Positions 3,501 through 54,446 of a DNA stretch of 54,480 bases are shown here, piece after piece. Positions within the stretch are counted from its first letter, which is position 1. Every line of letters starts with the position of its first letter. The stretch is from a phage. Both the position numbers and the translations under genes were made by a program. The notes under the pieces were generated by a model that was not told the origin of the DNA, did no database searches, and saw nothing but the letters and a program-made list of their open reading frames with translations. The stretch lies in assembly GCA_018865545.1 (NCBI GenBank), contig GCA_018865545.1_3633.2; one strand, 5' to 3'.

Positions 3501-3881
3501 TGGGTATCATAATTCTATCACACACTTAAACGCAAAGCAACATAAAAATTTTTGTTGAATGATAATCATTCTCATTTGCAGAATGACAGGTAGGATCGGT
3601 GTCTTATCCTCCCCCGTTGACCATCGTCGCCGTAGTTTGAAGTTTATAGCCGTTCTCGGCTTATCTCTTTGTTAGATATAGATTAACATAATTGATAAAG
3701 AAAGCAAGCGTTAATTGTAATCTTTACGTTTCTTTACAAATTTATTTTTGACGAGTTACCGGCGATCGACCTTCCAACCAGCGCCCTGGTATGTTAGCCC
3801 CGCCTTTACGCCGTGGGGATGGCGTTTCCTCTTCTGTATGTGAAACATTATAAGCCCGACCCCCGGGCTTGTCAAACATTT

Positions 3882-4332: not shown

Positions 4333-4956
4333 ATGAAAACCATCGTTAACGCTGAGAATGTATCTTTCGATAAGTTGAGCGACGCACAAAAAGAAAAAGC
4401 CATTGATCTTATTCGTGAGCGTGAAAGAGAAAGTAATAATGATTTCTTTGCTGATAGTGTCATTGAAGACTATAAGAATGACATTTTGCCAGAGTACGGG
4501 ATCGATGACGCGGTTATCTATTGGTCAGGATTCTGGTCGCAAGGCGACGGCGCATCAATCAGCACTGACCGCGTGGATATTGAAAAATTTTTAAGAAAAG
4601 TTAAATCTTTAACAAAATTCAGAGGGATCCGCAAACTATTTGATCTCGGTGAATATAGTCCGTTATATGCAAGCATTGAGCGGGATAATTACAGCCGCTA
4701 CCACCATGAAAATACTGTTTCCGGTTACGTTGACACTATGTATTGCGGCGATTTAACGGCAAAGCAGGAAGATTTGACCAATCAGCTTGAAAACTTGTTA
4801 ACTGAAACGATCCGCGATCTGTCTTGTAAACTTTACAGAGATTTAGAATCAGCCTACGATGACCAGTTTACAGATGAAGCCATCACAGAATCAATCGAAG
4901 CCAATGATTATCGTTTTGATATTGATGAAGATGGAAAAGTTTACGCTATCGCTTAA
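4333..4956 (+). CDS. hypothetical acidic early protein
   Basis: ORF track; AAAGGGG RBS; shares its first 8 codons (MKTIVNAE) with the gene at 9373. Confidence 0.6.
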   Translation: MKTIVNAENVSFDKLSDAQKEKAIDLIRERERESNNDFFADSVIEDYKNDILPEYGIDDAVIYWSGFWSQGDGASISTDRVDIEKFLRKVKSLTKFRGIRKLFDLGEYSPLYASIERDNYSRYHHENTVSGYVDTMYCGDLTAKQEDLTNQLENLLTETIRDLSCKLYRDLESAYDDQFTDEAITESIEANDYRFDIDEDGKVYAIA

Positions 4957-5046: not shown

Positions 5047-5265
5047 ATGGCTAATATCCGCACATTGTTAAAAAATGCAAAGCAAGTTTTATTTTCTGAC
5101 GACGAATATTTTAATTGCAATATCAAAGGCGTTCGGAACATCGAGGATGTAAAGGATTTATTTGGAATAAAAGGTAATGTATATCGTAAAGGGTTACACG
5201 GCAATCATCTTGAATATAAGTTAGCTGATAGTGATTATAATTTTACTTTGACAATTATTTCATAA
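5047..5265 (+). CDS. hypothetical protein
   Basis: ORF track; AGGAGA RBS; preceded by GC hairpin 5006-5028. Confidence 0.5.
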   Translation: MANIRTLLKNAKQVLFSDDEYFNCNIKGVRNIEDVKDLFGIKGNVYRKGLHGNHLEYKLADSDYNFTLTIIS

Positions 5266-12598: not shown

Positions 12599-12790
12599 AT
12601 GGATGTACCACAAGTTAGAAAGGTATTAGCAGCGTTACGCTATCACAATCATAGCAAGGTGAAGAATGATCCTGATTATGTTGATTCCAGCTTGGAGGAA
12701 GACACCTTGCAAGCTATAAGCCATATGCAGGAATTGCTTAAGCGTATGACAGAGAAGAACAGATCTGATTATATAGGTGAAGAGATTTAA
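12599..12790 (+). CDS. hypothetical protein
   Basis: ORF track; AAAGGAG RBS. Confidence 0.5.
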   Translation: MDVPQVRKVLAALRYHNHSKVKNDPDYVDSSLEEDTLQAISHMQELLKRMTEKNRSDYIGEEI

Positions 12791-12821: not shown

Positions 12822-12850
12822 AAGGGGCGCATTAAGCGCCCTTTATTTTT
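12822..12850 (+). terminator. rho-independent terminator ending the plus-strand cluster
   Basis: Hairpin GGGGCGC-ATTA-AGCGCCC followed by TTTATTTTTG. Confidence 0.6.
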
Positions 12851-13235
12851 GCCCTAACAAGTATGATAAGTTTTATCTATCAAAACACCACACAGAAAAA
12901 AGTGAATAAAACGCGGTATCGAGCTAAACGAGGGCAGACAATACAACGGCAAGGCTGAACATTTAAGGCCGTTATAACGCGATTCAGGCCGCTTAAAATC
13001 GATCCCCACCACGAACAACCCCCACAAAATGACTAAAACGACACAACATGACCTAAATGATAACCATTATCAATAACATAAGCATTTTTATGCGTTTTTA
13101 GTGAATATCTATTTAAATGATAATGACTCTCAACAACAAACTAACACGACCGAAGCGATTTAATCGCCTACCACAAAATTAATCATTTGTAAAGAACAAT
13201 TTAAAAGCTGCGTAAGTGGCGCGACCGTAGGGAGC

Positions 13236-13460
13236 GACACAATAACGCAGTAGTAACCCCTCCCCTCACTCCTTACAGTCGCCCGGTATCGGGCTAGCGT
13301 TATTATGTCGCTACGCGCCAACGCGTTAACAATTTTGCAAAGAAGCCTGCTTTGCAGGTTAAGCGCATTGCGCTTAATCGCGTAGCGACTATGTGAAATT
13401 ATAACAGTTAAATTATTAATAAAATCTTGCAAAATTGTTAACCTACTGCGTTATTGTGTC
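13236..13460. repeat. nested and interleaved inverted repeats
   Basis: 18-bp perfect IR GACACAATAACGCAGTAG (13236-13253) / CTACTGCGTTATTGTGTC (13443-13460); 16-bp IR 13325-13340 / 13427-13442; 11-bp IR GTCGCTACGCG / CGCGTAGCGAC; palindrome TTAAGCGCATTGCGCTTAA. Confidence 0.7.
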
Positions 13461-13849
13461 CGGTACGGATTAGTTACGTATGTAACTAACAACTAACGTT
13501 GCTAAATTGTGTCCTGTATATAATTCGTTAAATTAACCAAATTAATCCCCGATTATTACGCAGTAAATCACCTGCTTTTAACCCTGTTAATGTGCCACGT
13601 AGTGATCTGCTATCTTGCCCAGGGATAACCGCATGGCATGCGGTTAAATGCTGTTAAGTGCCTGAAATGCCAGATCAATTTAGTCACTGCGTGATTATGA
13701 TTGCGACAATAATTTGCTTATGATTTGTTATGCTTTGTTATAATTTGCTATTTATTTGTTAAACACTCTTTTATCTTTCCTCTTTCATTTTTGTTATATT
13801 TGATTTGTTATCGTTTTCTTCCGTTTCATTTCGTTATTGAAAACAAGAA

Positions 13850-15250
13850 TTATTATCATTCATGTGCCTTAACAGGCTGGCAGGTCTGTTAGTGGTCTGG
13901 TTCTCTGTGTGGTCATGTGATGGCTGGCTTAGTAGCTTGGTTTTATTGTCTGGCCTGTTATTGTTAGCTTGCTTGTTGTTGTGTGGTGTATGTATCAGTT
14001 AGCTAGTGTATGATCTGGTGCGCATAACGTGTATTATGTTAAATCACTAAGCCCACAAATAAGGTGGCTTGTCAATAACAATAAGTGCTGTGTGCGGTAG
14101 TCTGGCCCATCAGTGCGCCCCTTTGTTGTGTGGTGCTCTCAGTGTGTGACCTGTCTGCTGTGTGCGCTGCGCCAAATCTCGAGCGGTTCTCGATCACAAT
14201 AGCTGTAAGATATTTTGTAAAGATTCGTAGTTTTTCTTGACACCCACAATCGTCCGTCTAACCCTTCAGAGATTTATCTGTGATTTTTACCCTTCAGAGA
14301 TAAATACAAACTATGAGCTACATCTGCCACAAGCATACCTGCCATGTCACATCACTAATCTTGCAAGGATATTTCTGTAAGTGAACCTGCACACAATGCA
14401 GCACGCGTCTTGTTGTGTGGGGAGGGTGGGGTAACAATCAGGAAGTGGTGTGGCTGTGATAACGTATTGGATAAAAACTCTGGCTGGCTTGTCGATGATA
14501 TTTGTGTGGGGAAATGCTGATGGGTAAGATATAAGACACTTGTCTCCGGCAGGGGTGGGGTGTGGAAAAGAAATGGGCCTGTCCGACCCATTGTGATATA
14601 GAAATGAAATGGCCATCTCACCATTGACCAGGTAAGCCAATATCAAGGCCAAATTCGTGGCACTCATCCCAGTCAAGACTTTGATTCCAGTTTGTAACTG
14701 TCCTCTCTGTGTGGTGGGTGTATGATGCTCTCTGTGACTGCTTTGGCATCTTTTTTGTCTGAGATTTCCCGAAAAGAGGTGTGTTGTCATTGAGTCTTCC
14801 GGCAGCCTTTTCACCCTTTTTGACTTGTCTCCCACAGGCATTCCACTGCTCCAGTGTCCTGTAACACATAAAATCATTCTCCTGTAATATCTGGTGTGAG
14901 GATAATGACAGATTGTATCAGATGCGTCAAGTCTGTTGACCAGAGTGTGTGGGGAGTGGTGTCGTTATAAAAAAAAATTTTAGGGAGCTTTCCATGACTT
15001 ATTCTGTGGCTTCAGCAAGGCCATAAACCCAGATGTGGCGGGGCTTTCAGCTATGTTGTGTGTTGATCGCAAACAAGGATAAAATAATCAATATAAATGC
15101 AGATAAATGTTGTTTTATTGTGTTTGTGTAACTGGGGTGTCGTGTCTTGATAGGTTATGACCTGTACATATTTTGTACAATTGTGTGGTGTGCAGAGTTT
15201 GGGTGGCAATTCCCCAGACGGGGCAGGGTAGGTTATGGTGGAGAGCAGGG
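13850..15250. repeat. GT-skewed non-coding region with recurring TGTGTGG(G) motifs and G-tracts
   Basis: Direct inspection: TGTGTGG-like motifs near 13975, 14125, 14412, 14446, 14503, 14556, 14707, 14945, 15181; GGGGAGGGTGGGG at 14419-14431. Confidence 0.5.
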
Positions 15251-15270
15251 GCATGGTTAGCCCCATATGA

Positions 15271-15594
15271 TCAGGGTTGTGCGTCTGTTTGTTTGAACTG
15301 GTCTTTTGAACGTATTACATAACCACAACCATATTTTCTCAGCCAGACCAGTTCCCATGGACTATCACTCAGGTTTTTCCTGTTTATCTCTTTTAGCTGG
15401 GCAACCGCATCGTCCCATGATGTGACTTCGAGATAACCGATAAGACTGTCCTCTCCAAAATCTCCGTAATCAAATGTGCATCTGACCTTGGCGATAAACT
15501 CTGTCTGTGGATTTTCAGGTTTTACAAAAGCCCAGTGAAAGATTTGTTCTGTGCAATGCTCATTAACCCACCTGATTTGTGTGGTCATAATCAC
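15271..15594 (-). CDS. hypothetical protein
   Basis: ORF track; last gene of the leftward cluster. Confidence 0.5.
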   Translation of the reverse strand: MIMTTQIRWVNEHCTEQIFHWAFVKPENPQTEFIAKVRCTFDYGDFGEDSLIGYLEVTSWDDAVAQLKEINRKNLSDSPWELVWLRKYGCGYVIRSKDQFKQTDAQP

Positions 15595-54050: not shown

Positions 54051-54446
54051 TCACTGTCGCTCTAACAAATCTTCTGCTGGATAAGCATACAGCATGTATT
54101 CCCAACCACGATGATAGTGTCTGTGCTGCCAGTTGATTAATTTTAGGCACACAATGTTCACCACGTTCCTGTCCCCATGGATAAAAACACAAGTCTCAAG
54201 GATTGACTTTCCAAACTCAACATGACTGTCAAGATACAGTTTTGTGTTGTATCTTTTTTCAGCATCTAGCATGATCTGTTTCAGAGCCAGAAATGCCTCA
54301 CGACACACAGATTTTTCATCAGAAATCATTTTGATATTCAAGCATTTCCCCCACACAGGCAACCACGTAAATCGTGTCTGATCACCACAACACAATCGGT
54401 TTGAAACAAACCTGTTTGACACACAACTGAATCGTCGTAGTGTCAT
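54051..54446 (-). CDS. hypothetical protein
   Basis: ORF track. Confidence 0.45.
   Translation of the reverse strand: MTLRRFSCVSNRFVSNRLCCGDQTRFTWLPVWGKCLNIKMISDEKSVCREAFLALKQIMLDAEKRYNTKLYLDSHVEFGKSILETCVFIHGDRNVVNIVCLKLINWQHRHYHRGWEYMLYAYPAEDLLERQ

Follow-up and report, generated by a model that had tools for sequence, protein, structure and literature searches.

What does a large phage keep in 2.4 kb of almost gene-free DNA at the point where two of its transcription units converge? The question is raised by positions 12851-15270 of a phage contig of 54,480 nt (GCA_018865545.1_3633.2; the whole stretch is called the window here, and the interval between the converging units the gap). A first-pass annotation, made from the sequence without database searches, had suggested a replication origin, a DNA-injection pause site, or a packaging site, and homology supports the last of these guesses. 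The gap is syntenic with the gene-free stretches that hold the direct terminal repeats (DTRs) of the phages Gotham, KPP-1, and phi92, and both boundaries of those repeats align within it. We put at roughly 80% the probability that the ends of a Vequintavirinae genome with short DTRs lie in the gap.

A search of phage records with the 2.4-kb gap returned six matches, at 87-90% identity over 89% of its length: Av-05 (whose record is present twice), 18-1-2, 19-1-2, 24-2-1, and TH18. The Av-05 and 18-1-2 records, which are those that we inspected, are classed as Avunavirus within the Vequintavirinae, the rV5-like myoviruses. Because the closest records are Avunavirus, a group whose complete genomes measure 121-134 kb, the 54-kb window must be part of a large genome and not a compact one. 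The gap had been called unusual for a compact phage genome; in a phage of about 130 kb it is normal for the group. Comparison with related genomes shows that gaps of similar size at the same position are the rule, with 2.46 kb in Gotham when its ends are joined and 1.8 kb in KPP-1. For comparisons closer to the window, IMG/VR gave Av-05 only, and a metagenome scan gave three loci (L019, L020, and L021).

The three reference phages have recorded terminal repeats, all of which lie in the syntenic gene-free stretch. The linear record of the Vequintavirus Gotham (vB_EcoM_Gotham, MT682716; PMC7471380) carries an annotated 459-bp repeat of identical sequence at both ends. The repeat has about 1 kb without genes to either side, and the genes run towards the ends, such that joining the ends produces a convergent gap. 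The Klebsiella phage KPP-1 (Mydovirus, MT438396) has a 514-bp DTR at 116316-116829, obtained from doubled coverage and PhageTerm by authors who class its packaging as T7-type (PMC9862379), and this interval falls within the convergent gene-free gap of KPP-1 at 115982-117756. In phi92 (Justusliebigvirus, Stephanstirmvirinae), for which a 343-bp DTR is annotated, the last gene, gp248, and its terminator are followed by a copy of a 133-bp block that is also present in the window, then by about 920 bp of gene-free DNA and the right terminal repeat. Repeats of 458 bp are reported for EdH4 and HdK5 (PMC6563267).

Alignment of the gap with these references locates both ends of the repeat. The first DTR base of KPP-1, Gotham, and phi92 falls in a single column, at 13761/13762 of the window (a slash marks the boundary here and below). 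At the other end, the repeats of KPP-1 and Gotham both stop at 14258/14259, and that of phi92 extends one base further. Because both reference boundaries map there, we predict a DTR at 13762-14258, and its 497 bp are within the family range of 343-514 bp. The left boundary reads TTTGTTA/AACAC in the window, TTGCTA/AACAC in KPP-1, ATGTCA/GACAA in Gotham, and TTTGTTG/AGCC in phi92, and the right boundary reads CGTCCGTC/TAACC in the window, TGTCCGTC/TAGCA in KPP-1, and CGTCCGCC/TGGCA in Gotham. The first 100 bp of the predicted repeat are 76% A+T. Inside it lies a 29-nt core that is 93% identical within the Gotham DTR and 90% identical within the KPP-1 DTR, at matching offsets. Once reverse-complemented, the KPP-1 gap is colinear with the window in its conserved islands, and a sensitive DNA search matched window positions 13212-13257 and 14007-14273 to Mydovirus and Seunavirus phages.

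The extent of the resemblance differs among the references. Gotham belongs to the same subfamily and shares with the window the genes that point to the ends, the roughly 1 kb of gene-free DNA on each side (a joined gap of 2.46 versus 2.4 kb), the 29-nt core, both boundary motifs, and, 200 bp beyond the DTR, an inverted repeat that is perfect over 18 bp. However, almost no other nucleotide similarity is found, the repeat motifs are different ones, Gotham has no copy of the 133-bp block, and its ends are determined from reads whereas those of the window are predicted. KPP-1 also has its DTR in a convergent gap, with four colinear islands, the boundary motifs ..GCTA/AACAC and ..GTCCGTC/TAGC, a 21-bp palindrome closing stem, and a homolog of an 83-aa gene of the window in the same cluster. 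In contrast to the window, KPP-1 places seven more genes between this homolog and the gap, has a DTR that is 17 bp longer, and lacks the TGTGTGGKG repeats found here. The order of elements in phi92 is that of the window: a terminator, the 133-bp block, AATGATAAT-type motifs, a branched palindrome with a AATAACGCA arm, TATTTGTT repeats, and TTTGTTG/A. Nevertheless, phi92 belongs to a different subfamily, shows no convergence, has a shorter DTR, and lacks the 83-aa gene.

Several points weigh against placing a genome end in the gap. The termini are predicted here from homology. Av-05 was deposited as circular, and rV5 was first described as circularly permuted (PMC3606486). The boundary motifs are short, similarity to the references is low outside the few islands, and the single significant match between Gotham and the window is the 29 nt of the core. 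The genes of phi92 beyond the DTR run away from the end, and the layout thus differs between the two subfamilies. Finally, the roles that we give to individual cis elements are assigned by analogy only.

A counterpart of the gap may have been drawn before. The genome map of rV5, the type phage of the subfamily, contains a box labeled "non-coding" that stands unexplained, the genome then being taken as circularly permuted (PMC3606486). Like the gap, it represents a gene-free stretch. The legend gives no position for the box, and synteny with Gotham would put it at the convergent 163/164 junction.

If the gap is the terminus region, the virion DNA would be linear, starting near 13762 and ending one genome length later near 14258, with the 497 bp present at both ends. 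Genes on both sides would be transcribed outward to the ends, and a circularized or collapsed assembly would display them as convergent units. By analogy with T7-type packaging, replication would generate concatemers joined head to tail, in which each junction has a single repeat copy. The gene-free flanks would provide recognition sites for terminase, which would cut at both conserved boundaries, and the missing repeat copy would be resynthesized. Candidate cis signals are the boundary motifs, the 133-bp block, the DTR core, the repeat arrays, and the palindrome 300 bp outside the DTR. The DTR would be shielded from incoming transcription by terminators to its left and right, and the 83-aa gene would be an independent gene located 360 bp in from one end. 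A T7-like hairpin intermediate in repeat regeneration might, speculatively, form at the conserved palindrome.

The T7 concatemer junction is reportedly a terminal repeat flanked by arrays of short repeats, with a palindrome hairpin that takes part in processing. Chung, Nardone and Hinkle (1990, J Mol Biol 216:939, cited in PMC4925675) are said to have proposed that the hairpin of this inverted repeat is a processing intermediate. The window resembles that junction in its predicted short DTR, the adjoining short-repeat arrays, and the inverted repeat just outside. Unlike in T7, host RNA polymerase is used here; the two share no sequence or gene homology, and a role for the palindrome is suggested by analogy. 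The likeness is a resemblance in mechanism and not membership.

One of the candidate signals is the branched palindrome at 13212-13460. Perfect outer arms of 18 bp (13236-13253 and 13443-13460) enclose perfect inner arms of 16 bp (13325-13340 and 13427-13442), and the left arm with its upstream flank (13212-13257) is conserved across Vequintavirinae genera. Equivalent closing stems of 15-21 bp, on the same side and 200-300 bp outside the DTR, are present in five more genera, which brings the total to six. These stems are perfect over 21 bp in KE22 and KPP-1 and over 18 bp in Gotham, and phi92 and Schickermooser have a perfect core of about 15 bp. The arms stay complementary via paired (compensatory) differences among genera.

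The palindrome loop and the DNA that follows it are more changeable. A two-hairpin module of 52 nt (AGTCGCTACGCGATTAAGCGCGATGCGCTTAACCTGCAAAGCAGGCTTCT; folding z = -2.0) occupies window positions 13341-13392 in the loop and is also found in the loop of Av-05 (L002 4523-4574). In 18-1-2 the copy lies 270 bp downstream, to the right (L001 6798-6849), and is 100% identical to the Av-05 copy, whereas the DNA around it is only about 79-87% identical. The module is not at that place in L019-L021 and was detected in Avunavirus only; it may be a tiny mobile module. The variable zone between the palindrome and the DTR contains units of about 53 nt; each opens with ATTGTGTC and has hairpins whose sequence varies. 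The number of these units differs among Av-05, 18-1-2, and the window. Extra copies of the arm motif AATAACGCAGTA lie at 13554 and 13685, with a palindrome at 13626-13646. The TTGYTA array reaches the DTR boundary, and its copy number differs among lineages, with an expansion in 18-1-2.

We considered whether the palindrome could be an active processing element common to rV5-like and phi92-like phages. It would act either as a hairpin primer for the second repeat copy or through a promoter in the loop, from which transcription would enter the repeat and set off cutting; the loop inversion described below and the wandering 52-nt module would be footprints of this activity, and the 133-bp block would be the terminase recognition site. 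We regard this as a speculative and rather unlikely extension of the terminus reading.

In the left flank, the 133-bp block is about 74-85% identical in more than 100 records from the Stephanstirmvirinae (phi92-like and phAPEC8-like phages) and Avunavirus, mostly in unannotated DNA. Among records opened at physical ends, many have the block about 1-1.5 kb from the record end. Because the conservation takes the form of sequence blocks without an RNA fold, protein-binding DNA fits the block better than RNA. The copy in L019 contains a mosaic junction (3516-3600), with a first half of the phAPEC8-like (Phapecoctavirus) type and a second half of the Avunavirus type. Two Fur-box-like motifs follow the block, and further AATGATAATCATT-type motifs are found at 13848-13860, 3558-3570, 4903-4915, and 5230-5242 as well as in the terminal regions of phi92, KPP-1, KE22, and Gotham. 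Compared with the E. coli Fur-box consensus, the AATGATAAT motifs match at most 15 of 19 positions in the window and 17 of 19 in phi92. Since the half-site spacing varies among relatives, binding by a phage protein is no less likely than binding by Fur.

The motif TGTGTGGKG, which has a longer form, TTGTTGTGTGGKG, is strongly over-represented and strand-polar. Nine copies are present in the 54-kb window versus 0.86 expected; eight lie in the gap, and the ninth is at 54349 on the minus strand. Between 13762 and 15270 there are seven copies, whereas local dinucleotide shuffles predict 0.18, and none of 2000 shuffles reached seven. Their positions are mostly common to Av-05 or 18-1-2, and one copy falls within the 83-aa coding sequence. 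The C-rich complement is always on the strand transcribed towards the repeat, and a role in Rho loading is one guess. By reasoning, we rejected a Chi-like protection signal: the left-end copies are on the wrong strand for an entering RecBCD, and the sequence is not Chi. Further right, the conserved palindrome TTGTACATATTTTGTACAA (15147-15200, with TTGTACA..TGTACAA near 15166-15186) lies immediately past the stop codon of the open reading frame (ORF) 15271..15594, where it overlaps promoter-like sites of either strand, and may be an operator.

Some of these features could be read differently. The arm motifs (GCGACACAATAACGCAGTAG and truncated ATTGTGTC copies at a spacing of about 53 bp) might be the iterons of a replication origin, with the adjoining T-rich stretch of 76% A+T as the unwinding element, a function that would be compatible with a genome terminus. 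Such an origin could account for four AATAACGCAGTA-like copies in alternating orientation at 13241-13696, three copies of ATTGTGTC at 13236-13513, the A+T-rich tract at 13651-13850, and the conservation of the palindrome in six genera. However, over the whole window the short arm motifs are no more frequent than expected by chance, the region has no initiator gene next to it, and no DnaA-box cluster is present, as the gap holds two one-mismatch sites, no more than elsewhere in the window. In addition, the rV5 authors report skew changes only where the direction of transcription changes (PMC3606486). We therefore consider an origin doubtful. It is quite unlikely that the gap serves instead as a transcription buffer, which would separate the converging units by exposing inward-moving RNA polymerase to a C-rich, G-poor strand (CMCCACACA motifs) that loads Rho and stops read-through and head-on collisions. 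All eight TGTGTGGKG copies in the gap are oriented such that a transcript entering it has the C-rich complement, C exceeds G on the inward-transcribed strand by about 1.1-2-fold at 12851-13150 and about 1.3-2.8-fold at 14851-15250, and intrinsic terminators stand on both sides. Yet a buffer leaves unexplained the boundary motifs, DTR core, and palindrome that are common to phages with mapped termini, the same elements sit between co-oriented genes in phi92, and the DTR itself contains two motif copies, which are behind a terminator.

The 86-bp segment between the 16-bp inverted repeats could also be an invertible promoter switch that turns a promoter towards or away from the DTR. Relative to Av-05 the segment is inverted at 98% identity. 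Within it, the sequence and a promoter scan suggest a promoter at an extended -10 element, TGTTATAAT (minus strand, 13406-13398). This element points towards the repeat in all relatives and away from it in the window, and a similar TGTTATCAT faces the DTR in KPP-1. The spacer of 18-1-2, L019, L020, and L021 is 33-34 nt long and has the Av-05 orientation, leaving the window as the only flipped one of six Avunavirus lineages, and no inversion was seen in 56 phi92-like records. These counts do not support recurrent flipping of the loop. No recombinase turned up, although none was looked for, and a single recombination event between the repeats or an assembly artifact, which is the simplest explanation, fits equally well. 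We regard a switch as very unlikely. A locus for functional small RNAs, transcribed from the 133-bp block, the palindrome, or the 52-nt module, appears highly improbable. The block is conserved across two subfamilies independently of its neighboring genes, and the extended -10 in the palindrome loop is followed by the two hairpins of the module and a weak terminator-like site. In the interval between the clusters, however, searches for transfer RNA, transfer-messenger RNA, and Rfam 15 families gave nothing at gathering thresholds, nor did Rfam at E = 5. For the block, consensus folding gave about -4 kcal/mol and revealed covariation on neither strand; shuffled sequences fold just as stably (z-scores of -0.15 and -0.47), on which grounds we rejected the block as a structured RNA. 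The block also has no convincing promoter or terminator of its own, and the 52-nt module is missing from three of six Avunavirus lineages.

With the gap read as a terminus region, the annotation of the group would change. Avunavirus records (the circular Av-05 and 54-kb scaffolds) come without terminal repeats, and in the gap they show either nothing or small ORFs of doubtful status. With the DTR in place, they would gain a natural genome start point and lose false ORFs. The gap is a real but ordinary feature of this phage group, in which the region type was known in the Vequintavirinae, and the terminal-repeat annotation for Avunavirus, missing from its records, is what is new here. Only the cis elements beside the ends are of wider interest. 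The boundary motifs, DTR core, palindrome, and 133-bp block are conserved beside the ends in two large subfamilies of therapeutic-candidate coliphages, and no study of packaging roles for such end-proximal elements was found in the literature searched. These elements are targets for deletion analysis and could be used in building packageable vectors.

Table. Coordinates of features in and beside the gap, in window numbering.
Feature	Position	Strand	Evidence or remark
Intrinsic terminator closing the plus-strand cluster, AAGGGGCGC-attaa-GCGCCCCTT plus T run	12822..12844	+	Conserved in Av-05, 18-1-2, and phi92-like phages
133-bp non-coding block, core GTGAATAnAnCGCGGTATCGAGCTAA, one CACCACACA motif	12863..12995		>100 phage records
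TGTGTGGKG, opposite-orientation copy (eighth in gap)	12886-12894	-	Motif count
Two TAAATGATAAyCATT-type (AAATGATAA-type) motifs, 60 bp apart, Fur-box-like	13054-13078, 13114-13138		Sequence
Branched palindrome, terminus-proximal	13212..13460		Outer and inner perfect arms
86-bp spacer between inner arms	13341..13426		Inverted versus Av-05 and all other relatives
Variable zone between palindrome and DTR	13453..13761		Repeat/hairpin units, arm-motif copies, TTGYTA array
Predicted DTR, 497 bp, +/-2 nt	13762..14258		Boundaries aligned to KPP-1, Gotham, and phi92 DTRs
TGTGTGGKG, seven copies	13980, 14127, 14414, 14503, 14708, 14946, 15182	+	Motif count
29-nt conserved core inside DTR (AACGTGTATTATGTTAAATCACTAAGCCC)	14016..14044		Also in Seunavirus phages
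Direct repeats ACCCTTCAGAGAT immediately outside DTR	14261..14301		2 copies here; 3 in Av-05 and 18-1-2
Terminator-like hairpin just downstream of 83-aa gene	14572..14592	-	Conserved in relatives
83-aa gene	14618..14869	-	phrog_25175; ribosome-binding site AGGAGA at 14880-14885
Conserved 0.4-kb spacer	14870..15270		Promoter-like sites for 83-aa gene; TTGTACA..TGTACAA palindrome

The coding content of the gap only partly agrees with the first-pass annotation. The ends that it gave for the two clusters, near 12850 and at 15271, are borne out: the last plus-strand ORF (12599..12790) is followed by a strong intrinsic terminator, and the last sizeable minus-strand ORF is 15271..15594. The convergence thus stands, but the region is not free of ORFs, nor is it without coding potential supported by a ribosome-binding site. 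No gene spans the whole region; one conserved small gene of 252 bp lies within it, in a different frame, and the non-coding DNA proper consists of 12851-14617 (1.77 kb) and 14870-15270 (0.4 kb). The small gene encodes 83 aa on the minus strand. Its AGGAGA sits 8 nt upstream of the ATG, and promoter-like sites lie upstream on the minus strand at 14939-14902.

This ORF is a real gene, as indicated by its ribosome-binding site, conserved frame, homologs, and synonymous bias. The protein matches phrog_25175 with E = 2e-37, and the ORF is an annotated coding sequence (CDS) in Av-05 and 18-1-2. Translated searches found a full-length match at 60% identity in Erwinia phage pEa_SNUABM_55 and matches to residues 1-39 at about 72% identity in Mydovirus phages. 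Frame and length are retained in three lineages, and the codon changes relative to Av-05 are 10 synonymous and 6 non-synonymous. An independent Logan contig has this gene as the sole gene called in the gap, and the assembly of run SRR14792941 contains an identical copy. The first 40 residues (TLEQWNACGRQVKKGEKAAG) give two sub-threshold Pfam matches, of which that to Rad4 BHD_2 (E = 1e-4) is stronger than that to the ArdC N-terminal domain (E = 0.004); a PDB sequence search with the protein gave no match. In a gene close to an end and under a promoter of its own, the ArdC match would point to an early anti-restriction or DNA-binding role.

The remaining ORFs of the gap do not appear to be genes. 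The longest, 176 aa at 14347..14877, had already been set aside as low-complexity and is indeed spurious, with frame-breaking gaps and in-frame stops in relatives and no Pfam match. In all, we rejected 13 ORFs of 30-176 aa beside the 83-aa gene, most of which are frame-broken by indels or stops in Av-05 and/or 18-1-2 in what is a crude test; a Pfam search of six of them gave no significant match. A 31-aa ORF that overlaps the 133-bp block was rejected as a peptide gene: it lacks a ribosome-binding site, its frame is broken in relatives, and the conservation runs past its stop. In 18-1-2, an extra 447-nt CDS, peg.141 (L001 5517-5963; record 12848-13294), lies between the last shared gene and the terminator and is absent from the window and Av-05.

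A few records and reports met during the comparison call for comment. The PhageMaP paper was dropped as a relevant comparison, the second phage there being a Felixounavirus. The record start of Salmonella phage SEW_6S (PQ002171) was rejected as a mapped terminus, as the record ends share only a 91-bp assembly overlap and the start lies inside the palindrome; this phage is filed under Demerecviridae, and its terminus region is Seunavirus-like. Four 146-kb records labeled as Campylobacter phages (MG065639, MG065645, MG065656, and MG065689) are probably mislabeled or contaminant coliphages, because they are about 96% identical to phi92 at the palindrome region.

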